From assembly GCA_035466595.1 (NCBI GenBank), contig DATIUV010000072.1:5816-69815 (forward strand): 64,000 nucleotides of DNA. The letters are read 5' to 3'. The notes under the pieces are model-generated. The model searched no databases, had not been told where the DNA came from, and saw nothing but the letters and a program-made list of their open reading frames with translations. Origin of the DNA: Pelomicrobium sp. GTDB lineage: Bacteria > Pseudomonadota > Gammaproteobacteria > Burkholderiales > UBA6910. The translations under genes and the position numbers were made by a program. This document shows positions 8,679 through 37,611 of the stretch, piece by piece. The number at the start of each line of letters is the position of its first letter. Position 1 is the first letter of the stretch.

Positions 8679-8737
8679 GGTTCCCGCGCCGGCGACGGGC
8701 AACAAGACATCGAACCCAACCCAGAGGAGGAGGCAAC

Positions 8738-9817
8738 ATGAAGCAGGGACGCAGACAGGCACTCAAGGCGCTGGGCGCCACCGGCTTGCTGGCCGCCGTG
8801 GCCAGCGCGCGCGACGCGGCGGCTCAGCAGGGCGGCCCGAGCTACAGCTTCAAGATGGCCACCGCCTGGTCCGGCGGCCCGCTCATGGACATCGGCGCCA
8901 AGGCATTCGCCGAGAATCTCGAGTTTCTCTCGGGCGGCCGCATGAAGGTGCAGGTTTTCCCCGGCGGCGCGCTCGGCAACGCGCTCAAGGTTTCCGAAAC
9001 GGTCAAGAACGGCATCGCCGAGATGGGCCACACCTGGATGGGCTACGACTGGGGCGCCGACCCCACCACGGTGGCGTTCGGCGGCTACGCCGGCAGCTTC
9101 AATTCCGAGTACATGCTGCACTGGCTGTATCAGGCCGGCGGCGTCGAGATGCAGCGCCAGTTCCGCGAGGAGAAATTCGGCATCGTTTCGATGCCGCTGT
9201 TCATCCGCACCGCGGAGGTGTTCCTGCACTCGCGCAAGCCGGTCCGCACGCTCGACGACCTCAAGGGCCTGAAGATGCGCACCGCCGGTGCCTGGATCGA
9301 GATGTCGAAGGAGCTCGGCGCCGCGCCGGTGACGACCCCCGGTGGCGAGATTTACCCCGCGCTGGAGCGCGGCGTCATCGACGCGACCGAGTGGGGCACG
9401 CTGTGGGAGAACATCACGCCCGGCTTCTACAAGGTCGCCAAGTACCTGATCATCCCGGGGGTGCATCAGCCCACGGCGCCGTTCGAGCTCTGCATCAACA
9501 AGGGAGTCTGGGACAAGCTGTCGACCAACGACCGTCGCCTGATCGAGATGACCGCCCGGCTGGTGACCTACGACTGTTTCACGCGCATCGGCCAGGAGGA
9601 TGCCAAGGCGCTGGACTTCTACAAGAAAGCGGGCAACGAGATCATCGAGCTCGACCCCGAGGTCCAGTACCGCGGCCGCGAGATCGGCCTCAACTGGGGC
9701 GACAAGACCGCCGACGCGAATCCCTGGTTTGCCAAGGTGCACAAGAGCCAGCGCGAGTTCGAGGCGCTCTGGAAGGACGCGCCGCGCTACCGTAACGTCA
9801 AGGTGCGGCCGGCCTGA
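8738..9817 (+). CDS. TRAP transporter substrate-binding protein (DctP-like, COG4663 type) with Tat-like signal
   Basis: Begins MKQGRRQALKALGATGLLAAVASA after GAGGAGGAGG. The start was trimmed from the long ORF 8006..9817. It is a paralog of the protein at 18278..19429. Confidence 0.85.
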   Translation: MKQGRRQALKALGATGLLAAVASARDAAAQQGGPSYSFKMATAWSGGPLMDIGAKAFAENLEFLSGGRMKVQVFPGGALGNALKVSETVKNGIAEMGHTWMGYDWGADPTTVAFGGYAGSFNSEYMLHWLYQAGGVEMQRQFREEKFGIVSMPLFIRTAEVFLHSRKPVRTLDDLKGLKMRTAGAWIEMSKELGAAPVTTPGGEIYPALERGVIDATEWGTLWENITPGFYKVAKYLIIPGVHQPTAPFELCINKGVWDKLSTNDRRLIEMTARLVTYDCFTRIGQEDAKALDFYKKAGNEIIELDPEVQYRGREIGLNWGDKTADANPWFAKVHKSQREFEALWKDAPRYRNVKVRPA

Positions 9818-29562: not shown

Positions 29563-31410
29563 TCACGCGGCGCCGACCGGCCCCGGCGGCATCTCGACGG
29601 GCACCTCGGTGTCGGGCCTTGCGACACGCTCCTGCCGCTGCAGCTCCCACAGGTGCGCATACGTGCCGCCGATCCCCAGCAGCTCAAGGTGCGAACCGCG
29701 CTCGACGATGCGGCCGTGGTCCAGGACCAGGATTTCGTCGGCGGCGACAATCGTGGAAAGCCGGTGCGCAATGACAAGCGTGGTGCGCGCGGCCGCGATC
29801 CGATCCAGCTCGGCCTGGATCGCCTTTTCCGAGCGCGAATCGAGCGCCGACGTGGCTTCGTCGAAGACGAGGATCGGCGGATTCTTGAGAATGGCGCGGG
29901 CGATCGCAACGCGCTGCTTCTCGCCGCCCGAGAGCTTGAGCCCGCGCTCGCCGACGAGCGTGTCGTAACCTTGCGGCAGGCTGCTGATGAAGCCATGCAT
30001 GTGAGCCGCGCGCGCCGCCTCGACCACCTCCTCGCGGGTCGCCCCGGCGCGCCCGTAGGCCACGTTGTAATAGACGGTGTCGTTGAAGAGCACCGTGTCC
30101 TGCGGCACGATGCCGATCGCCGCGCGCAGGCTGGATTGCGTCACGTCGCGAATGTCGATCCCGTCGATGACGATGCGCCCTTCCCACACGTCGTAGAACC
30201 GGAACAGCAGGCGCGAGAGCGTCGACTTGCCGGCGCCGCTCGCGCCCACCACGGCCACGGTCTTGCCGGCCGGCACCTCGAAGCTGACGTCGAACAGGAT
30301 CTGGCGGTCGCGCTCGTAGCCGAAGCTCACGTTCTCGAAGCGGATTGCCCCGCCGCTCGGCACCAGCGCCGGCGCGCCCACGCGGTCCTCGACCTCGCGG
30401 TTCTCGTCCAGCAGGCGGAACATGCGCTCCATGTCGGTCACCGACTGCTTCAGTTCGCGGTAGATGACGCCGAGAAAGTTGAGCGGGATGTAGAGCTGGA
30501 TCAGCAGCGCGTTGACCAGCACGAGGTCGCCGAGCGTGAGCTCCCCGCGCACCACGCCTTTTGCCGCCAGGGTCATCAGGGCCGTGACGCCCGCCGCGAT
30601 GATCAGGCTCTGCCCCGCGTTGAGCGCGCCGAGCGAGGTCTGGCTGCGGATTGCCGCCTGCTCCCACTGGGCGAGATTCTCGTCGTAGCGGCGGGCCTCG
30701 AACGCCTCGTTGCCAAAGTACTTCACCGTCTCGTAGTTGAGCAGGCTGTCGATCGCGCGCGTGTTGGCCTTCGAGTCCAGCTCGTTCATGGCCCGCCGGA
30801 AGCGCGTGCGCCATTCCGTGACCCAAACGGTCAACCCGATGTAGATGACCAGCGTGACCACGGTAACCAGCGCAAACACCGGTGGAAACTTGACCAGAAG
30901 CACGGCCGCCACCAGCCCGATCTCCACCAGAGTCGGCAGGATCGAGAAAAGCAGGTAGCTCATCAGCGCCGAGATCGCCCGCGTGCCGCGCTCGATGTCG
31001 CGCGACATGCCGCCGGTCTGGCGCGCCAGGTGAAAGCGCAGGCTGAGGCCATGCAGGTGGCGGAAAACTTCCAGCGCGATTCGGCGGATGGCGTGCTGCG
31101 TGACCCGCGCGAAGACGACGTCGCGCAGTTCCGTAAACAGGGTGCTCGACAGGCGCAATGCGCCGTACGCGATCAGCAGCGCCGCCGGCACCACCAGCAG
31201 CGCCGGCGGCCGGTCCAACGCATCGACGATCTCCTTCATCAGGATCGGCACGCCGACGTTGGCCACCTTGGCGAGGATCAGGCAGCCGGCGGCGAGCAGG
31301 ACGCGCCCGCGAAACTCCCACAGATAGGGAAACAGCGTGCGCAGCGCCTTCCACTCGTCTCCCTGAGGGCGCGGCGCAGCGTCGGTCGAATCGTGGCCGT
31401 GACGTCGCAT
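29563..31410 (-). CDS. ABC transporter permease/ATPase, ABCB (Atm1-like) exporter
   Basis: 615 aa with six N-terminal TM segments, Walker A GASGAGKST, signature LSGGEKQR and Walker B ILVFDEATS. Confidence 0.9.
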   Translation of the reverse strand: MRRHGHDSTDAAPRPQGDEWKALRTLFPYLWEFRGRVLLAAGCLILAKVANVGVPILMKEIVDALDRPPALLVVPAALLIAYGALRLSSTLFTELRDVVFARVTQHAIRRIALEVFRHLHGLSLRFHLARQTGGMSRDIERGTRAISALMSYLLFSILPTLVEIGLVAAVLLVKFPPVFALVTVVTLVIYIGLTVWVTEWRTRFRRAMNELDSKANTRAIDSLLNYETVKYFGNEAFEARRYDENLAQWEQAAIRSQTSLGALNAGQSLIIAAGVTALMTLAAKGVVRGELTLGDLVLVNALLIQLYIPLNFLGVIYRELKQSVTDMERMFRLLDENREVEDRVGAPALVPSGGAIRFENVSFGYERDRQILFDVSFEVPAGKTVAVVGASGAGKSTLSRLLFRFYDVWEGRIVIDGIDIRDVTQSSLRAAIGIVPQDTVLFNDTVYYNVAYGRAGATREEVVEAARAAHMHGFISSLPQGYDTLVGERGLKLSGGEKQRVAIARAILKNPPILVFDEATSALDSRSEKAIQAELDRIAAARTTLVIAHRLSTIVAADEILVLDHGRIVERGSHLELLGIGGTYAHLWELQRQERVARPDTEVPVEMPPGPVGAA

Positions 31411-31596
31411 GAAGGGTGAAGCCTACCGTCTCGGCACGGACAGGTCACCTCGACCCGCATTGACAGCGGCGCGCGGCGCGCACCAGAATGGAGCAACGTC
31501 GCGGGCAAACGACAACGACGCCGGAGGAGGCCCCCATGCTCGCAGCCGAGGCAACGCGCCAGCGTTGCTCGTCAAGCCGTTCCCATCGAGGCTCCG

Positions 31597-32612: not shown

Positions 32613-33848
32613 TCAGTGCCCCATGCTGGGCGTCGTGATCTTGTTCCCGTTGCTGAGCGACGTGAGGTAATACTCGATATCCGCGTACTCCGGCGCATCC
32701 GGCGGCAGCTCGTTCGCCCGGATGGCCACGCCGCACCACTGCAGCCGCTTGCGCACCGTCCACATCTGGCTCTGGCTGGTGCGATAGTACGGATGGTGGC
32801 CGAGCTGATTCTGGGAGGGACCGAGGTACTGGCCGCGGATCCACCGGTTGGCCGCCTGGCCGTGGCAGTCATTGCAGGAAAAGTTCAGCTGTCCCACCTT
32901 GCGCTCCATGAGCTGTTTGCCGTTTGCCGCGCGTGCCTTTTCCTCCGCGGTCCGGAACCGGATGTCGATCACCGCGCCGCGCGCCAGGCCGCGCAAATAG
33001 GCGGACAGGGCAATATTCTCCGTGCTTTGCATCAGGTACTCGGCCCCGGTGGTCGCCCGCGCATGGCGGGTAATGAACTCCTCGCCGTTGAGCACTTTCT
33101 TCATGCGCGGCTCGTAGTAGGGCATCTTGGCCGCCCAGGTCCGAAACGCCTTCTTCGGGTCCTGGTGGCAGGACGCGCACGACTTGCCGTTGGGGCCGGG
33201 GGTGGCGAACACCTTTTCGCCTCGATCCACCTCGCCCCAGGCCGGGTTCTCGAAGGGATCGTCCGGGTTGTACAGCGGCGTTTCCTTCTTGCGCTGGTTC
33301 GGGTCGTCGCGTACGTCCTTGAACGTCGCGGGCGTCTTAAGCGTTTTCAGATAGGCGACCATGTCCCGAATCTCGCCCTCCTTGTACAGGCCGTGCCTCC
33401 CCCAGGGCGGCATCATGGTATTGGCGTTGAAGACGCGGGCGTCGTAGATGTAGTTGTAGAGGTACCAGTCCGACCGGCCCCAGGTGCCGATGGTGGAGAG
33501 GTCGGGGCCGACGTTGCCCGGCAGCGTGGCGCCGGGGAGAATGTGGCAGGCAAGGCAGCCGCCGCCCCGGCTGCGGTCGAACGCGAGTTTCTTGCCGTTC
33601 TCCGCGTTGCCGTCCTCGATGGGCCCGTAGACTTTCTGGAACCGCTCGACCGGCGGCGACGCGTCGGTGCGCATGGTGTTGAACTTGTCCCAGTTCGCCT
33701 GGGGCCAATTCGAGTAACGGGACCATGGCTCCGGCGCCGCCGACTTCTGCGTTTCCAGCGGCGCCCGCGATCCCGCCGCAGCCGCAAACAGCCCGGGTGC
33801 GGACAATGAAACGATCGCCGCGACGACGATCTTCGATACAGTTCCCAT
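32613..33848 (-). CDS. Fused SoxX-SoxA-like triheme c-type cytochrome
   Basis: 411 aa with a signal peptide. The N-terminal SoxX-like domain has GGCLACH...NTMMPPWG. The C-terminal SoxA-like domain has CASCH, LNFSCNDCH and the conserved Cys in RKRLQWCG. Confidence 0.8.
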   Translation of the reverse strand: MGTVSKIVVAAIVSLSAPGLFAAAAGSRAPLETQKSAAPEPWSRYSNWPQANWDKFNTMRTDASPPVERFQKVYGPIEDGNAENGKKLAFDRSRGGGCLACHILPGATLPGNVGPDLSTIGTWGRSDWYLYNYIYDARVFNANTMMPPWGRHGLYKEGEIRDMVAYLKTLKTPATFKDVRDDPNQRKKETPLYNPDDPFENPAWGEVDRGEKVFATPGPNGKSCASCHQDPKKAFRTWAAKMPYYEPRMKKVLNGEEFITRHARATTGAEYLMQSTENIALSAYLRGLARGAVIDIRFRTAEEKARAANGKQLMERKVGQLNFSCNDCHGQAANRWIRGQYLGPSQNQLGHHPYYRTSQSQMWTVRKRLQWCGVAIRANELPPDAPEYADIEYYLTSLSNGNKITTPSMGH

Positions 33849-33910
33849 GGTGCCCCCTCCGTGATTAAGACGCCTGTGACCGGCAAACGAGTTCTACTGC
33901 AAAGACGGAG

Positions 33911-33942
33911 AAAAAAAAAGAGGCGCTTTATGCAAGCGCCTC
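33911..33942 (-). terminator. Intrinsic terminator (9-bp stem GAGGCGCTT/AAGCGCCTC, 5-nt loop, T9) in the leader of the fused soxXA gene
   Basis: Minus strand reads GAGGCGCTTgcataAAGCGCCTCTTTTTTTTT. It lies between the sigma-54 promoter and the ATG at 33848. Confidence 0.75.
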
Positions 33943-34004
33943 AATAGCCAAAGGAGGAGGATGAAAACAACGAGAATGCTCCCGCTGCCTTCAGTCCCTT
34001 TTAA

Positions 34005-34019
34005 GCAATCCCCATGCCA
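34005..34019 (-). promoter_or_regulatory. Sigma-54 (-24/-12) promoter TGGCATggggaTTGC
   Basis: The minus strand reads GTGGCATGGGGATTGCT, matching TGGCAC-N5-TTGCW with correct GG-to-GC spacing. It sits in an AT-rich gap. Confidence 0.65.
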
Positions 34020-34048
34020 CAAAATATCTGCTGTATTTTCAATAATCT

Positions 34049-34076
34049 AGAAAAAACGCCGGCTCGCGCCGGCGTT
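34049..34076 (-). terminator. Intrinsic terminator after soxX-soxA-lipoprotein module 1
   Basis: Minus strand reads AACGCCGGCgcgaGCCGGCGTTTTTTCT. Confidence 0.75.
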
Positions 34077-34135
34077 TCGGTTTCGTCAATTCCGCTACAT
34101 CCCGGTGCACCGTGCACCATCGTGCAGCGAAACCC

Positions 34136-34462
34136 TTAGAACGACAAGGTCGGGTATTTCTTCTGCCGTTGGCTCAAATTCGCCTGCTCGCTGGCCTTCT
34201 TGGCATTCTTGAGCACCGTTGCACTGTCACCCTTGCGCGCCGCATCTTCGGCGGCTTTGAGGGCATCCGTTGCCGTGGACCAGGAGTTACCGGACTTCTT
34301 CGCGTCCTTGACGTCCGCCTCGGCCTGCGCCAAGGCGTCCATCGCCTGCTTCGACAGGCCGCCCTGGGCGACCGGCTTGGCGGGCGGCTCCTCGAGCGCG
34401 GTGGCGCAGCCGGCCAAAATCAGCGCGGCGACCATGGCCGCAAACAGCGTCACTCGCTTCAT
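34136..34462 (-). CDS. 108-aa helical lipoprotein in the soxK position (paralog of 35936..36262)
   Basis: ATG at 34460-34462 after GGGGAGGAGG. Has the lipobox LILAGC. It shares ...KGD.A.VLKNAK.AS..A.L.....KYP with its paralog. Confidence 0.7.
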   Translation of the reverse strand: MKRVTLFAAMVAALILAGCATALEEPPAKPVAQGGLSKQAMDALAQAEADVKDAKKSGNSWSTATDALKAAEDAARKGDSATVLKNAKKASEQANLSQRQKKYPTLSF

Positions 34463-34507
34463 CGTGCCTCCTCCCCGTTCCGGATCATGTCGTGAGCTCA
34501 TGGGCGC

Positions 34508-35335
34508 TCACTTGCGGTAGATCGATGAATACATGGGCAGGCCGTTGCTCATGTACGACATGAAGTATTCGAGGTTGTTGTACTCCTCGCTGCCAGGCTT
34601 TTTCGGGTCGGCCCGCACCTGTTCCTCACAGCGCTTGTAGCGCATGTGCAGGGTGTTGAGCGAGTCGCCGCCGCGGAATACCGGCCAGTGGGTCGCCTGC
34701 CCCAGCATGGGCGACAGGATCTCGGTACGCAGCGTGTTGCCCGCATTGCCAATATGGCAGGTGGCGCAGGCGAAGTTCAGCTGGCCGTGCCGCGAGAAAT
34801 AATACTTCTTGCCTTCTTCGTACTTTTTCAGCGCACCCGGGCTGTCGACCTTGATGTTCATCTTCATGCCGTCCGACAGGGTCCGCGCGTAGGCCACCAG
34901 CAGCCCCATGGTGCGGCGGTCGCCGTAGTCGTAGGGCTCCTCGCCGTTTGCCTCCCGGCAAAGATTGACGGCGCCCTCGAAGGTAACGACTTTCCCCAGT
35001 TTCTCGTCGTAGTACGGGTAGTTGCCCGCCACCATTTTGCCGCCGTTCTGGAAGCAGTCCGCGTAGGTCTTGCCGTTCTTGAATGGCGTCTCCCATAGCT
35101 TCTTGCCCTTGTCGATGTCGACCAGAAAGGGCGGGAAGGCCATGATGCTCTCGTACTGCTGCAGCGCGTCGGGGCTGACGATCATCGCGCCGTGGATATA
35201 GTCCTCGAACTTCACGTTCGGGTACTTCTGCTTATACATCGCCACCAGTTTCTGGCGGTCCTCTTCGGGCGAGGCGTTCGCCGCCCCCGTGACAACTGCC
35301 GCAATTCCCGCCAAGGCAAGAATCCAATGCTTCAT
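34508..35335 (-). CDS. soxA: SoxA, monoheme type (L-cysteine S-thiosulfotransferase subunit), copy 1
   Basis: 275 aa with a signal peptide, a single heme site LNFACATCH and the conserved ligand Cys in RYKRCEEQ. The first heme site is degenerate (YADCFQNGG). Confidence 0.85.
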   Translation of the reverse strand: MKHWILALAGIAAVVTGAANASPEEDRQKLVAMYKQKYPNVKFEDYIHGAMIVSPDALQQYESIMAFPPFLVDIDKGKKLWETPFKNGKTYADCFQNGGKMVAGNYPYYDEKLGKVVTFEGAVNLCREANGEEPYDYGDRRTMGLLVAYARTLSDGMKMNIKVDSPGALKKYEEGKKYYFSRHGQLNFACATCHIGNAGNTLRTEILSPMLGQATHWPVFRGGDSLNTLHMRYKRCEEQVRADPKKPGSEEYNNLEYFMSYMSNGLPMYSSIYRK

Positions 35336-35406
35336 CTTTTCCTCCGTAAAACGTCGTCACCGCCCGTCGCGGCGGGCGCCGGCTGGCCGGATCGCCAACG
35401 GGCGCG

Positions 35407-35793
35407 CTACAAGCCGTGCACGAAATCCGTGATCAGGTCAATTTCCTTGTCCGTCAGGATTCCATGGACGCCGAACGGCGGCATGGACGTTTCCGGATTG
35501 TTGCGCATCGGGTCGGCGATCTGCTGGCGCAACTTGGCCCGGTCGGGAAACCGGGCCTTCATTGCGATCAGCGGTGGGCCGATGTTGGCCGCCGTGTAGT
35601 TCTTGGACGTGGGCGACAGCGTTTCCTGCAGCGTGGGAAACGAATGGCACGCCATGCAGTTGCCCTTGCGGTTGTTGAAGGCCAGGTCCTTGCCGGTAGG
35701 CTCCTTGGCGGTCTGGGCCGACGCGGCAGCCGAGATCGCCAAGAAACCCATGGCAATGGCAGGCCCCAGCCAGCGCTTGCGCGTTGGGGTCAT
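35407..35793 (-). CDS. soxX: SoxX monoheme cytochrome c, copy 1
   Basis: 128 aa with a signal peptide and RKGNCMACH...SMPPFG. Confidence 0.85.
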   Translation of the reverse strand: MTPTRKRWLGPAIAMGFLAISAAASAQTAKEPTGKDLAFNNRKGNCMACHSFPTLQETLSPTSKNYTAANIGPPLIAMKARFPDRAKLRQQIADPMRNNPETSMPPFGVHGILTDKEIDLITDFVHGL

Positions 35794-35867
35794 CGCTCCT
35801 CCTCGTGGTAGTTATCGTGAGCGGCGCTTATTCTGCCATGCAGCCGAATGTTGTAAATACGGGAGCG

Positions 35868-35903
35868 AAAAAATTGAAAAAGGGGCGGCCCAGAGGCCGC
35901 CCC
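35868..35903 (-). terminator. Intrinsic terminator after soxX-soxA-lipoprotein module 2
   Basis: Minus strand reads GGGGCGGCCtctgGGCCGCCCCTTTTTCAATTTTTT. Confidence 0.75.
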
Positions 35904-35935
35904 TTTTCCTGCCGAACCCGAAACCGCCGCACCCG

Positions 35936-36262
35936 TCAGTAGGTAGTCAGGGGATACTTCGTTTGCATAGCCCCGAGCTTGGCATGGTCACTCGCGATCT
36001 TGGCGTTCTTGAGCACGGCCGCATTGTCGCCCTTCTTCGCCGCCTCCTCGGCCTGCTTCAGTGCCTTGTCTGCCGTCGTCCACAGGGCGGCTTCCTTTTT
36101 CTTCGTTGCTGCGACCTCGGCACGGGCCTGTTCCAGGGCAGCACTCGCCTCGCTCGAGAGGCCAACCATCGGTTCCGCGGTGGGCTTGACCGTCGCCCCG
36201 CCCTCACACCCGGCCAGAACCACCGCGGCCAAGGCGGCGGCGGCCAGCATCTTCAAGTCCAT
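35936..36262 (-). CDS. 108-aa helical lipoprotein in the soxK position (paralog of 34136..34462)
   Basis: ATG after GAGGAGG. Has the lipobox VVLAGC. Its length and C-terminal motif are conserved with the paralog. Confidence 0.7.
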   Translation of the reverse strand: MDLKMLAAAALAAVVLAGCEGGATVKPTAEPMVGLSSEASAALEQARAEVAATKKKEAALWTTADKALKQAEEAAKKGDNAAVLKNAKIASDHAKLGAMQTKYPLTTY

Positions 36263-36311
36263 GGGTATCCTCCTCGTTATCCGTGACTGATTCCGCTTTT
36301 CCGGTCCCGCG

Positions 36312-37142
36312 TCACTTGCGGAACACGGAGGCCTGCATCTCGAGGCCGTTACTCAGGTAGCTGTGGAAGTATTCGAGGTCGTTGAACTCGGTGCTTCCGG
36401 GCTTGAGAGGCACCGCGCGAATCCGGCTCAGGCAGCCGCGATAACGGTCCTGCAGGGTCACGAGCCGGCTGCCGCCCCGGAATACCGGCCAATGGGTCGC
36501 CTGACCAATCGCCGGGGAAAGGTATTCCGTCCGCACGATCTGGCCCGCCCCCTGGATGTGGCAGCTCGCGCACGAAAAATTGAGCTGGCCATGGCGGGTG
36601 AAGAAGAACTTCTTACCCCGCTCGAACGCCTCCTGCGCGGCCGGCGACTGGACCTTGATGTTCATCTTCATGCCGTCCGACAGGGTCCGGGCGTAGGCGG
36701 TCAGCACCCCCATCGTCTTCATGTCGTTGTAGGCCAGCGGCGCCTCCCCGTTGGCCTCGCGGCAGGCGTTCAGGGCCATTTCGAAGGTGACGACCTTGCC
36801 GGCCTTGTCGTCGAAGTAGGGATAGTTCCCGGCCACCATCCTGCCGCCATTGGGGAAGCAGCCGGCGTAGGTCTTGCCGTTCTTGAACGGCATCTCCCAC
36901 ATTTTTTTGCCCTTCTCGATGTCGCTCACATAGGGCGGGAAGTCCATGATGGCCTCATACTGGCCCATCGAATCTTCGCTGAAGTTCAGCGCGCCATGGA
37001 CGTAGTCTTCGAGCTTGATCTCCGGGTAGCGCTTCTGGAAATACTGCAGCAGGGCCTGACGATCCTGTTCCGGAGCCGCGACGGCGGCGGCCGGTGCCAG
37101 AACCAAAGCCAGGGCGGCAAGAGCCGTTATCAGCCTTGTCAT
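36312..37142 (-). CDS. soxA: SoxA, monoheme type, copy 2
   Basis: 276 aa. Has LNFSCASCH and RYRGCLSR and is collinear with copy 1 throughout. Confidence 0.85.
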   Translation of the reverse strand: MTRLITALAALALVLAPAAAVAAPEQDRQALLQYFQKRYPEIKLEDYVHGALNFSEDSMGQYEAIMDFPPYVSDIEKGKKMWEMPFKNGKTYAGCFPNGGRMVAGNYPYFDDKAGKVVTFEMALNACREANGEAPLAYNDMKTMGVLTAYARTLSDGMKMNIKVQSPAAQEAFERGKKFFFTRHGQLNFSCASCHIQGAGQIVRTEYLSPAIGQATHWPVFRGGSRLVTLQDRYRGCLSRIRAVPLKPGSTEFNDLEYFHSYLSNGLEMQASVFRK

Positions 37143-37215
37143 TTCATGCCTCCTAATCGGTAACCGGGCCGAGGGAGCGCGGCGGCGTCGCCTCGTGCCA
37201 CAAGCGGTCGGTGGA

Positions 37216-37611
37216 TCACAGACCGTAGATGAAGTCGGTGATCAGATCGATTTCCTTTTCGGACAGGATCTGATGCTTGCCGAACGGCGGCATCAAAGTG
37301 TCCGGATTGGTCGTCATCGGATCCCAGATCTGGGCGCGGAGCTTGCCCTTGTCCGGGTACCGCTTGTTCATCGCGATGATCGGGGGACCGATCGTGGCGG
37401 CCGTGTAATTCTTGGAAACGGACGAGCGCGTGGTCGCCAGGGTCGGGAACTGGTGGCAGGCCAGGCAGTTGCCCTTGCGGCGGTCAAACGTCAGATCCTG
37501 GCCGGTAGGCTCCTTTGCCTTTTCAGCTGCTGAAACCGCAACAGGAGCCGATGCAACGGCCATCAAGGCGGCAACCCCGGCAGTGGCCAGGGCGAAACGG
37601 GAAGTTCGCAT
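37216..37611 (-). CDS. soxX: SoxX monoheme cytochrome c, copy 2
   Basis: 131 aa. Has RKGNCLACH...LMPPFG and is collinear with copy 1. Confidence 0.85.
   Translation of the reverse strand: MRTSRFALATAGVAALMAVASAPVAVSAAEKAKEPTGQDLTFDRRKGNCLACHQFPTLATTRSSVSKNYTAATIGPPIIAMNKRYPDKGKLRAQIWDPMTTNPDTLMPPFGKHQILSEKEIDLITDFIYGL

Follow-up and report, generated by a model that had tools for sequence, protein, structure and literature searches.

In gammaproteobacteria, several short, terminated RNAs are transcribed by sigma-54 under the control of an enhancer-binding response regulator, namely LuxO for Qrr, GlrR for GlmY and CbrB for CrcZ. Qrr base-pairs through a conserved region of 32 nt, and GlmY and CrcZ sequester proteins. 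Stand-alone small RNA (sRNA) genes with an RpoN promoter of the TGGCAC-N5-TTGC type have been described as NrsZ in Pseudomonas aeruginosa and NfiS/NfiR in P. stutzeri, and NtrB/C activate the NrsZ system when nitrogen is scarce (PMC4253122, PMC6606865). MmgR (alpha-r8) of the alphaproteobacterium Sinorhizobium meliloti is an Hfq-dependent, trans-acting RNA of around 77 nt, with an anti-Shine-Dalgarno (anti-SD) motif located in a loop and an intrinsic terminator; NtrC induces its transcription when nitrogen is limiting, and the promoters listed are RpoD/RpoN for MmgR and sigma-70 (RpoD) for NfeR1 (PMC7143759). ncS16 (Bc_KC_sr1, RF02866) of Burkholderia cenocepacia is 83 nt long and is induced in biofilm, in stationary phase and under starvation (PMC5688073). 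Unpaired CU-rich anti-SD motifs, predicted to occlude ribosome-binding sites (RBSs), are carried by the Betaproteobacteria toxic small RNAs and by alpha-r14/alpha-r15, and the predicted targets of such sRNAs are often mRNAs of transporter binding proteins (PMC5688073, PMC7143759). NcS25 of Burkholderia was considered as a further sigma-54-dependent parallel and dropped, because there is no sigma-54 motif upstream of ncS25 (PMC10117139).

Read on the minus strand, the gap at 33849-34135 of the 64-kb window (the whole stretch of DNA analysed here) precedes a fused soxXA gene, whose ORF encodes 411 aa with SoxX and SoxA domains. In our judgement, this gap quite likely holds a gene of its own, encoding a small regulatory RNA of around 80 nt that would be transcribed by sigma-54 and act in trans. 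The following elements were recognized in and around it.

34113..34129, minus strand: putative activator box 1, CGCTGCACGATGGTGCA, agreeing with the NtrC box TGCACCAnnnTGGTGCA at 11 of 14 positions
34093..34109, minus strand: putative activator box 2, TGCACCGGGATGTAGCG, agreeing with the NtrC box at 10 of 14 positions
34051..34075, minus strand: upstream intrinsic terminator, an 8-bp stem ACGCCGGC / GCCGGCGT (34075-34056) with a GCGA loop and a T-run (34055-34051)
34037..34049, minus strand: IHF-like site TAGATTATTGAAA, which differs from YAANNNNTTGATW at two positions and shares its register with the family
34004..34019, minus strand: sigma-54 -24/-12 promoter TGGCATGGGGATTGCT (TGGCAT-GGGGA-TTGCT)
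33911..33993, minus strand: predicted sRNA transcript of around 76-83 nt, starting 12 nt past the C of the -12 element (34005) and ending within U9
33962..33993, minus strand: 5' hairpin, 14 bp in the window, the 12-bp consensus opening with a conserved GAAGGC
33948..33964, minus strand: putative anti-SD seed UCAUCCUCCUCCUUUGG, unpaired in the minimum-free-energy and consensus structures
33960-33953, minus strand: CCTCCTCC
33911..33942, minus strand: sRNA intrinsic terminator, GAGGCGCTT-GCATA-AAGCGCCTC (33942-33920; 9-bp GC stem, 5-nt loop) followed by T9 (33919-33911)
33846..33860, minus strand: RBS GGAGGGGG (33860-33853) and ATG (33848-33846) of the fused soxXA gene

All elements named in the original prediction are present in the sequence, with coordinates differing by a base or two. 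The terminator of module 1, which it placed at 34076..34049 of the minus strand, was found at 34075-34051 (34070-34055 in a terminator scan). It belongs to the upstream SAXB-like gene, whose 121-aa ORF ends with TAA at 34138-34136, and lies between the activator boxes and the sRNA promoter; it is kept in a relative (L009) and missing in another (L005), which itself has no upstream sox module. The stretch named between promoter and hairpin is CCTCCTCC, and the 9-bp GC hairpin plus T9 (33942..33911) as well as the soxXA RBS followed by an ATG at 33848 occur exactly where they had been put. The -24/-12 element is also real, but its coordinates (34019..34005, given for a 17-mer) were one base off at each end. 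The gap was rightly described as AT-rich for this genome (G+C of 0.47-0.52, compared with around 0.62-0.73 in the flanks). The statement that the window has no enhancer-binding protein gene agrees with our search, in which no gene of the GAFTGA type was found within the 64 kb or in the family loci described below.

The ends of the sRNA are predictions, the start being placed from the promoter and the end from the U-run. For the predicted 89-nt RNA, the folding energy is -35.5 kcal/mol (z = -4.64), a value that none of 200 shuffled sequences attains. The single-stranded stretch around UCAUCCUCCUCCUUUGG, approximately 17-20 nt long, is the most conserved part of the RNA, and we take it to resemble the 3' end of 16S rRNA. 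In the predicted structure, the succession of a hairpin, a single-stranded stretch and a U-tailed terminator is the layout of an Hfq-type base-pairing sRNA, and we infer an involvement of Hfq. A covariance model, R1, scores 78 bits on the window (33913-33998), where it finds a single copy, and finds none in L003, a 74% soxXA relative. The sRNA was found once per matching contig, with one seed between two hairpins.

An exact scan with the 17-mer, using one genome per species, yielded 116 loci, of which 46 (including L002/L043) carry the promoter, the 5' hairpin, the seed and the terminator. These 46 members all belong to metagenome-assembled genomes (MAGs) of Betaproteobacteria/Burkholderiales or to Pelomicrobium. 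Compensatory changes over the 46 species were recognized in 12 of the 20 base pairs of the two hairpins: in helix 1, the 5' hairpin, both partners have changed in six of 12 pairs, with 95.4% of cells paired, and in helix 2, the terminator, compensatory changes affect six of eight pairs. Overall, 95.6% of cells are paired, compared with 45-57% (around 50%) when the partners are slid, and double-change cells number 122, compared with 41 +/- 5 in 500 shuffles, none of which reaches 122. Both hairpins covary, and the unit is conserved in 46 species. The 17-nt seed is identical in all 46 members, an invariance that is partly built in, since the members were found with that 17-mer. A sample independent of the seed was taken by fetching 80 loci through the neighbouring phosphatase gene, and it contained two further members, L135 (78.9 bits) and L184 (62.4 bits); this sample, in which most loci have no shared downstream ABC gene, is too small to measure how variable the seed is. 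L184 has a variant seed that keeps the core AUCCUCCUUUGG; its promoter, TGGCAC-N5-TTGCT, is a perfect match, and it has a pair of TGGTGC boxes spaced 30 bp apart. The distribution is patchy, with the RNA present in two of nine metagenomic loci that have the same flanking genes.

Comparison with Rfam gave no match at the gathering threshold in the window or in 18 family loci, and the sub-threshold matches are scattered across several anti-SD sRNA families. The best match of the window RNA is MmgR (RF00519, 'suhB'; E = 4e-4), at 29.6 bits, with relatives at 26.6-28.3 bits and the threshold at 41 bits. Both RNAs have a similar length, an anti-SD motif and an intrinsic terminator, but MmgR is alphaproteobacterial and has its motif in a loop, and the alignment covers only the CU-rich stretch and the terminator, the first hairpin of MmgR being deleted. 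The resemblance is generic, because other family members match other anti-SD sRNA models. For some members, such as L035, the best sub-threshold match is ncS16 (RF02866; 34.6 bits in L035, 27.2 in the window and 24.8 in L106, against a threshold of 48), which is likewise betaproteobacterial and in which a CU-rich single strand separates a 5' hairpin from a terminator. However, ncS16 belongs to the ompA 3' UTR region with its own start site, its seed reads CAUUCUCCUCUUGUCG..., and a sigma-54 promoter is not reported for it. RF02278 (ncS27 and others), NfeR1 and AbcR1/2 share the unpaired CU-rich anti-SD motif. With a threshold of 50 bits, RF02278 scores 26-27 bits on L032 and L123, and the window is not among the matches listed at E <= 10; these RNAs occur in multiple copies and form double or triple hairpins that carry the motif in their loops, an architecture unlike that of the window RNA. 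NrsZ resembles the window RNA in being a stand-alone gene with an RpoN-type promoter, but it is around 226 nt long, consists of three repeated stem-loops processed to units of around 40 nt, acts through the loop motif ACAGGCAG with no anti-SD seed, adjoins ntrC, and has no sequence similarity to the window RNA. The transcriptional logic of Qrr, GlmY and CrcZ is alike, whereas their activators and mechanisms differ, and the Rfam scan of the window gave no sequence or structural match to them. The sRNA family, which is absent from Rfam 15, is well supported; a literature search with the seed sequence found no relevant paper and none containing the sRNA sequence.

Within the 64-kb window, TGGCAY-N5-TTGCW is matched exactly by the promoter TGGCATGGGGATTGCT alone; 0.14 matches are expected by chance, and at least one occurs in 13 of 100 shuffled windows. 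Taken alone, this match is only mildly unusual, and its reality rests on the comparative data. GGC(A/G)-N8-GC is present in 46 of 46 members at a consistent distance from the seed, the GG and GC dinucleotides keeping a fixed spacing in the window and across the 46 species while the 5-nt spacer varies. The positions left free by the search also agree with the sigma-54 consensus tTGGCAY-N5-TTGCW (Barrios et al. 1999, as quoted in PMC4253122): T occupies -1 in 40 of 46 members and Y occupies +4 in all 46, the two T residues preceding GC are found in 40 and 35, and W follows GC in 45. That the unit is conserved in 46 species and has covarying helices also bears on the idea that it has no function, being a set of chance features in an AT-rich spacer, or the RBS and start (GGAGGAGG-ATG) of a small protein encoded on the opposite strand. 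An exact promoter match in 13% of shuffled windows is what such a reading would lead one to expect, and the reverse complement of the seed, AAAGGAGGAGGATGAAA, does look like an RBS with a start codon. But the orientation of the U-run is consistent with the minus strand only, and the antisense ORF varies from 6 to >68 codons with nothing conserved past MKT, so that an antisense small-protein gene was rejected. We give the absence of function virtually no credence and regard it as already refuted by the comparative data.

Sigma-54 promoters typically have activator sites around 100-150 bp upstream, often separated from the promoter by an IHF site, and putative activator sites and an intervening IHF-like site lie upstream of the promoter here. 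In the window, the GGTGC of box 1 is exactly 100 nt upstream of the -24 GG, and GGTGC is found at -100 (+/-4) in 27 of 46 members. NtrC boxes 31 bp apart also occur at glnAp2. The starts of 17-mers scoring at least 9 of 14 cluster at -111/-112 and -80/-81, that is, 31 bp apart; the second box starts at -80/-81 in most relatives and at around -91 in the window clade, so the two boxes of the window are spaced unlike those of most relatives. NtrC-box-like 17-mers (at least 10 of 14; the consensus, a 17-bp palindrome, is from PMC8743547) are present in 28 of 46 upstream regions, compared with 6.6% of background windows, and such boxes also precede the nearby Atm1-like exporter. The left half-sites are weak, and it is from half-site resemblance that we infer NtrC. 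No boxes were found at the standard positions in a sub-clade of eight members (L035, L038, L044, L052, L094, L100, L117 and L120). The family consensus of the IHF-like site, TAAnnnnTTGATT, lies at -31..-19 from the -24 GG, with A at -30 in 37 of 46 members and the TTGAT positions kept in 29-32 of 46. The window retains both the -100 box and this site.

The genes around the RNA show that the RNA gene, as delimited from sequence, is independent of soxXA. Its own promoter and U-tailed terminator stay together while flanks and downstream genes change, and at loci with soxXA orthologues the flanks have diverged and the RNA unit is nearly identical. Fused soxXA is located downstream of the RNA in only six of 46 species and upstream in two (L036 and L122). 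In all 42 of the loci with sufficient sequence, the neighbour conserved downstream is an Atm1-like ABC exporter; in most species it directly follows the RNA on the same strand, and its ATG lies 30-330 nt past the terminator in 27 loci. This arrangement might suggest that the RNA is a by-product of a purely cis-acting attenuating leader, in which a regulated terminator sits in the 5' UTR of the downstream gene, and in folds of the nascent transcript 4-6 nt of the CU-rich stretch can indeed pair with the terminator's G-rich 5' arm. However, in compact loci the ABC ATG has no SD and is preceded, at a distance of 9-11 nt, by a conserved extended -10 box, TGCTAGAAT, so that the exporter is served by a promoter of its own and its mRNA is near-leaderless; an exporter leader was rejected on this ground, and ABC orthologues at around 70% identity in other lineages are without the RNA. 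The downstream gene, moreover, differs between clades, being another one in eight species, and is a convergent MBL gene in L036 (L122 has too little downstream sequence to judge orientation). The highest conservation lies in an unpaired stretch of 17-20 nt, which suits a pairing seed rather than a ligand pocket or a switch. We consider a pure cis leader very improbable.

The same evidence separates the two readings that the original prediction had offered. A sigma-54-dependent sRNA of about 80-90 nt is strongly supported by the conservation of promoter, hairpins and CU-rich stretch as a covarying unit in 46 species. A leader attenuating soxXA fails on synteny, and we rejected it; no gene is constantly placed to be read from the terminator, soxXA occupying that place in six species and the ABC exporter or others elsewhere. 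Nascent-transcript folds of 45 members also contained no stable conserved antiterminator, the CU-rich stretch pairing with 3-6 nt of the terminator 5' arm and with at least 5 nt in only 14 of the 45.

Some transcription of soxXA through the terminator may nevertheless occur in the window clade, because the consensus scan detected no sigma-70-like promoter within 33000-35000, a region that takes in the 63 nt separating U9 from the soxXA start. It could thus be imagined that the locus has a dual use in this clade, in which the sRNA gene also supplies soxXA, 63 nt downstream, by partial read-through; soxXA would then be under the same sigma-54/activator control, and the sRNA, or the 5' part of the read-through transcript, could pair with the soxXA SD. 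The same-strand order of sRNA and then soxXA is found in the window, L009, L002, L005, L051, L056 and L135, and the soxXA start region of the Pelomicrobium clade, GGAGGAGGAUGAAA, spacer included, complements the seed over 13-14 nt (-30.6 kcal/mol), with interspecies differences that are A-to-G changes keeping G.U pairs. However, in the window itself the pairing of the seed with the soxXA start is limited to 8 nt (-22.2 kcal/mol), the terminator, with its nine GC-rich pairs and U9, is a strong one for which no stable conserved antiterminator was seen, and the interval from terminator to soxXA is not conserved in close relatives. Furthermore, the consensus scan is insensitive to high-G+C betaproteobacterial promoters, so that a missed promoter is plausible, and a TAGAAC/TAGAAA element common to the window and L009 is a candidate -10 box. 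Dual use is, on balance, unlikely.

As to targets, the strongest predicted seed duplexes in the window involve the start of a gene for a DctP-family TRAP binding protein (-28.1 kcal/mol), followed by those of soxX (-25.9) and fused soxXA (-22.2). That the best complement is a TRAP binding-protein start parallels the transporter-binding-protein targets of known anti-SD sRNAs, but in-window predictions of this kind carry little weight, because any anti-SD seed pairs with any strong SD. As to the suggestion that the stretch could sequester the SD of soxXA, the predicted pairing of the seed with this RBS region is generic and weaker than at the two other sites. Fused soxXA is a neighbour of the RNA gene, lying outside it, and a possible target. 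The clade-specific complementarity to soxXA and the NtrC-like boxes hint at a further scheme, in which a nitrogen signal through NtrC and sigma-54 produces an anti-SD sRNA that directly represses translation of SoxXA and of transporter binding proteins; we think this improbable.

For the independent, trans-acting sRNA that we prefer, the following course of events is envisaged. RNA polymerase with sigma-54 would bind TGGCAT-N5-TTGCT and be activated by an enhancer-binding protein from the two NtrC-like boxes approximately 100-130 bp upstream, probably aided by DNA bending at the IHF-like site. Transcription would start near 33993 and stop at the GC hairpin and U9, giving an RNA with a protective 5' hairpin, around 20 nt of single-stranded UCAUCCUCCUCCUUUGG and a terminator with its U tail. 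This RNA would most likely act in trans by pairing with the SD regions of a set of mRNAs, whose translation would be blocked while the signal of the activator, possibly nitrogen limitation, is on.

The window RNA and its relatives probably represent a new family of sigma-54-dependent, anti-SD sRNAs, for which action in trans is probable. One consequence concerns annotation, in that the sigma-54 promoter is to be regarded as part of the RNA gene and not of soxXA. The promoter architecture, with two phased boxes, an IHF site and the -24/-12 element, could help to define the regulon of the activator in these genomes. Almost all members belong to uncultured, deep-branching lineages, Burkholderiales/Hydrogenophilia-like and living in soils and sediments, for which, to our knowledge, no riboregulators have been described. 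Should the NtrC-dependent repression of SoxXA prove true, nitrogen limitation would be coupled to sulfur lithotrophy in Pelomicrobium-like bacteria. Since Pelomicrobium is a cultured carrier, the predictions made for the sRNA are directly testable.

The AT-rich gap at 33849–34135 of the window has a G+C content of 0.47–0.52, compared with about 0.62–0.73 in its surroundings, and the terminators, sigma-54 element, hairpin with T9, GGAGGGGG and ATG that the original prediction placed there are all present on the minus strand. Three consecutive SoxXA units (32613–37611, minus strand) occupy this part of the window; relatives carry zero, one or two unfused soxX-soxA modules.

Features of the gap and its neighbors in the window
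37611–35936, minus: soxX, soxA and a 108-aa ORF
35793–34136, minus: soxX, soxA and a 121-aa SAXB-like ORF
34138–34136, minus: stop codon TAA of the 121-aa ORF, weakly similar to SAXB (SoxAX-binding protein)
34075–34056 (stem) and 34055–34051 (T-run), minus: intrinsic terminator of the upstream sox module, by sequence and terminator scan
34019–34004, minus: sigma-54 element TGGCATGGGGATTGCT, by sequence reading
33960–33953, minus: CCTCCTCC within the CU-rich stretch, by sequence reading
33942–33920, minus: 9-bp GC hairpin, followed by T9 (33919–33911), by terminator scan
33860–33853, minus: GGAGGGGG before fused soxXA, by sequence reading
33848–32613, minus: fused soxXA, a 411-aa ORF with SoxX and SoxA domains, ATG at 33848
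29563–31410, minus: ABC exporter gene, 615 aa

In the fold of the predicted 89-nt RNA (about 33996–33908; −35.5 kcal/mol, z = −4.6), a 14-bp 5' hairpin and the terminator flank an open CU-rich stretch. The exact motif TGGCAY-N5-TTGCW occurs once in the 64-kb window, against a chance expectation of 0.14, and at least once in 13 of 100 shuffles, so that the sigma-54 motif by itself is weak evidence.

Among the soxXA orthologue loci of other genomes, L009, L002 and L005–L008 (fused SoxXA identity 91%, 87% and 84%) retain, nearly unchanged, the block that begins at the −24 element and ends with the U-run, with all surroundings diverged; the upstream genes of L005 are entirely different from those of the window. 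The block is absent from L003, a 74% SoxXA relative. Searching one genome per species with the 17-mer TCATCCTCCTCCTTTGG from the CU-rich stretch, hereafter the seed, yielded 116 loci, of which 46 are true relatives and the rest are coding or chance matches. The relatives belong to Betaproteobacteria/Burkholderiales metagenome-assembled genomes (MAGs), Pelomicrobium sp. G1 and one Pelomicrobium MAG, Pelomicrobium being placed in Hydrogenophilia incertae sedis in the NCBI taxonomy. Every one shows the same order: GG-N10-GC, a spacer of 9–13 nt, a hairpin opening with GAAGGC-like bases, the CU-rich stretch, a GC hairpin and a U-run. With the covariance model R1, built from the family alignment, the window yields a single copy, at 78 bits (33913–33998), and no non-family locus tested exceeds 22 bits. 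Five MAGs labeled Streptomycetaceae/Streptomyces (L039, L047, L061, L077 and L106) carry the sRNA locus with its flanking genes; their bins or taxonomic labels are probably wrong. TCATCCTCCTCCTTTGG also lies, between GGTGTGAGG and AGTATATGT, within a coding region that is conserved in Alistipes/Rikenellaceae and related Bacteroidales (including L010, L011, L014, L026, L029, L034, L042, L045 and L049). These loci are unrelated to the sRNA, and L010, the sole one tested, scores 17.3 bits with R1.

The RNAalifold consensus of 45 sequences comprises two helices, of 12 bp at the 5' end and of 8 bp in the terminator, with compensatory changes in 12 pairs. Paired cells amount to 95.6%, compared with 45–57% in a control with the partners slid, and double-change cells number 122, compared with 41 ± 5 in shuffles, none of 500 shuffles attaining the observed count.

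Since the 46 members were found by the seed 17-mer, the invariance of the seed is partly circular. A seed-independent sample was provided by 80 metagenomic loci fetched via the neighboring phosphatase gene; the ABC gene lies downstream in only nine of these, and two of the nine contain the RNA. One, the Pelomicrobium-like L135, scores 78.9 bits with R1, and the other, L184 (3690–3900), scores 62.4 bits and carries a variant seed, UCGUCAUCCUCCUUUGG, showing that the core AUCCUCCUUUGG is conserved independently of the 17-mer search. The promoter of L184 is perfect (TGGCAC-N5-TTGCT). Its two TGGTGC boxes are separated by 30 bp and stand at −89 and −59 relative to the −24 GG, displaced by about one helical turn from the usual −100 and −69. 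Distribution within the lineage is patchy: in L179 (6152–6298) and L180 (6729–6819) the gap between phosphatase and ABC exporter is merely 90–146 nt, without the sRNA, and the lineage has thus acquired or lost the sRNA gene at this position.

In all 46 members GGC(A/G)-N8-GC is spaced consistently from the seed, and at positions free of search constraint the consensus is tTGGCAY-N5-TTGCW. T precedes GG in 40 of 46, Y follows GGCA in 46 of 46, the two T's before GC are kept in 40 and 35, and W follows GC in 45, while the 5-nt spacer varies. Measured against the sigma-54 consensus as quoted in PMC4253122, this is how a functional sigma-54 promoter would be expected to be conserved at the level of sequence.

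Further upstream, the pentamer GGTGC occurs at −100 (±4) from the −24 GG in 27 of 46 members, and a second element is GGTGC at −69/−70 or GCACC at about −80. Matches of at least 10/14 to the 17-bp reference NtrC box TGCACCAnnnTGGTGCA (PMC8743547, PMC4987338) were found in 28 of 46 upstream regions, against a rate of 6.6% among 2138 background windows of these loci. The starts of 17-mers matching at least 9/14 cluster at −111/−112 and −80/−81, a distance of 31 bp (three helical turns), and an IHF-like consensus, TAAnnnnTTGATT, lies at −31 to −19. The corresponding sites in the window, with the upstream sox module's terminator located between its boxes and the sRNA promoter, are as follows.

Putative regulatory sites upstream of the sRNA promoter in the window
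34129–34113, minus: NtrC-like box 1, CGCTGCACGATGGTGCA, 11/14, with its GGTGC exactly at −100
34109–34093, minus: NtrC-like box 2, 10/14
34049–34037, minus: IHF-like site, two mismatches

These putative sites have the architecture of a textbook enhancer-dependent promoter. The predicted activator resembles NtrC in both site sequence and site spacing, and may be NtrC itself; we place this slightly below an even chance, because the match is weak in the left half-sites, boxes are missing at these positions from one sub-clade, and the comparison includes no genuine NtrC target of these genomes. As originally noted for the window, no enhancer-binding protein gene is recognized there by the GAFTGA motif, nor in any family locus. 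A 12/14 match to the NtrC box, TGCTCCATTCTGGTGCG (31479–31495, read on the minus strand), is the sole site that good in 64 kb. It falls in the divergent gap separating the Atm1-like ABC exporter from a metallo-beta-lactamase-fold (MBL) gene, around 85 nt before the exporter's ATG (31410), and is kept as TGCCCCATTGTGGTGCG in L002 and L005. The exporter or the MBL gene may be under the same regulator as the sRNA.

The original prediction allowed either a short sigma-54-dependent sRNA or an attenuating leader of fused soxXA. The conserved downstream gene is the 615-aa ABC exporter, named in JGI sources as a subfamily B heavy-metal/Fe-S-cluster (Atm1-type) transporter and present in each of the 42 family loci whose downstream sequence is long enough; the upstream neighbor is an endonuclease/exonuclease/phosphatase-family gene. 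Only in the clade of the window, L002, L005, L009 and two Pelomicrobium genomes is the RNA separated from the ABC gene by fused soxXA and the MBL gene. In L036 and L122 soxXA precedes the RNA, the next downstream gene of L036 being convergent. On this synteny, a soxXA leader was rejected. In nascent-transcript folding, moreover, the CU-rich stretch pairs with the 5' arm of the terminator over only 3–6 nt, and no stable conserved antiterminator was found. It is improbable that terminator read-through also feeds soxXA in the window clade; we retain this because a scan of the window revealed no sigma-70-like promoter in the stretch from the terminator to soxXA. A leader of the ABC exporter was rejected on the same folding result and on two others. 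In compact loci (L035, L038, L044, L094, L100 and L117), the space after the sRNA terminator contains an extended −10 box, TGCTAGAAT, that is conserved 9–11 nt before the exporter ATG, with no Shine-Dalgarno (SD) sequence; in the window, TAGGCT stands 9 nt ahead of this ATG (region 31411–31430). The ABC gene thus has its own promoter, and its mRNA is suggested to be leaderless or near-leaderless. ABC orthologues of about 70% identity in other lineages have no such RNA upstream. An antisense small ORF on the plus strand (GGAGGAGG-ATG) ranges from 6 to >68 codons, is not conserved, and was discarded. The sRNA reading is strongly supported, the unit being conserved with covariation in 46 species independently of soxXA, and the attenuator reading is not supported. 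We consider it probable that the locus is a genuine, independent sigma-54-type sRNA gene.

In its predicted layout the RNA follows Hfq-type base-pairing sRNAs: the transcript opens directly with a 5' hairpin, continues with a single-stranded seed of around 20 nt and ends in a terminator carrying a long U tail. The seed resembles the anti-SD 3' end of 16S rRNA. When the activator is on, the sRNA would occlude the ribosome-binding sites of several mRNAs, and such SD occlusion in trans is a fairly likely mode of action. Candidate seed complements in the window are listed here.

Start regions complementary to the seed in the window
8716–8745, plus: DctP-family TRAP binding-protein gene, the best complement, −28.1 kcal/mol
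near 35818, minus: second soxX, −25.9 kcal/mol
minus: fused soxXA, −22.2 kcal/mol, 8 pairs

The TRAP solute-binding protein ORF starts at 8738 (plus strand), with a Tat-like signal and the start region CAGAGGAGGAGGCAACAUGAAG. Complementarity of the soxXA start region to the seed extends over 13–14 nt in the Pelomicrobium clade and takes in the SD-to-AUG spacer (GGAGGAGGAUGAAA), with a duplex of −30.6 kcal/mol compared with −22 in the window. The start regions in L056, L051 and L135 (7185–7215) are GGAGGAGGAUGAAAUG, GGAGGAGGGUGAGAUG and GGAGGAGGGUGAAAUG, and the differences between species are A-to-G, keeping G·U pairs. These three sequences hint that the soxXA neighbor is a target in this clade.

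No Rfam 15 family reached its gathering score in the window and 18 family loci. The best scores were 29.6 bits for suhB/MmgR (threshold 41), 34.6 bits for ncS16 (48) and about 27 bits for the Betaproteobacteria toxic sRNA (50); being scattered across several anti-SD sRNA families, these sub-threshold scores indicate a likeness of architecture, not membership. The closest functional analogue is MmgR, a 77-nt, Hfq-dependent, NtrC-induced RNA with an anti-SD motif (PMC7143759), and NrsZ is a stand-alone sRNA controlled by RpoN/NtrC (PMC4253122). NcS25 was dismissed as a precedent, as it is not sigma-54-dependent (PMC10117139). A literature search for the seed sequence found no paper containing it. 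Comparative sequence evidence thus supports well a new family within a known class, that of sigma-54-dependent, anti-SD, probably trans-acting sRNAs. It would represent not a new principle, but a new sRNA family in poorly studied sulfur-oxidizing lineages, for which Pelomicrobium is a cultured organism available for testing.
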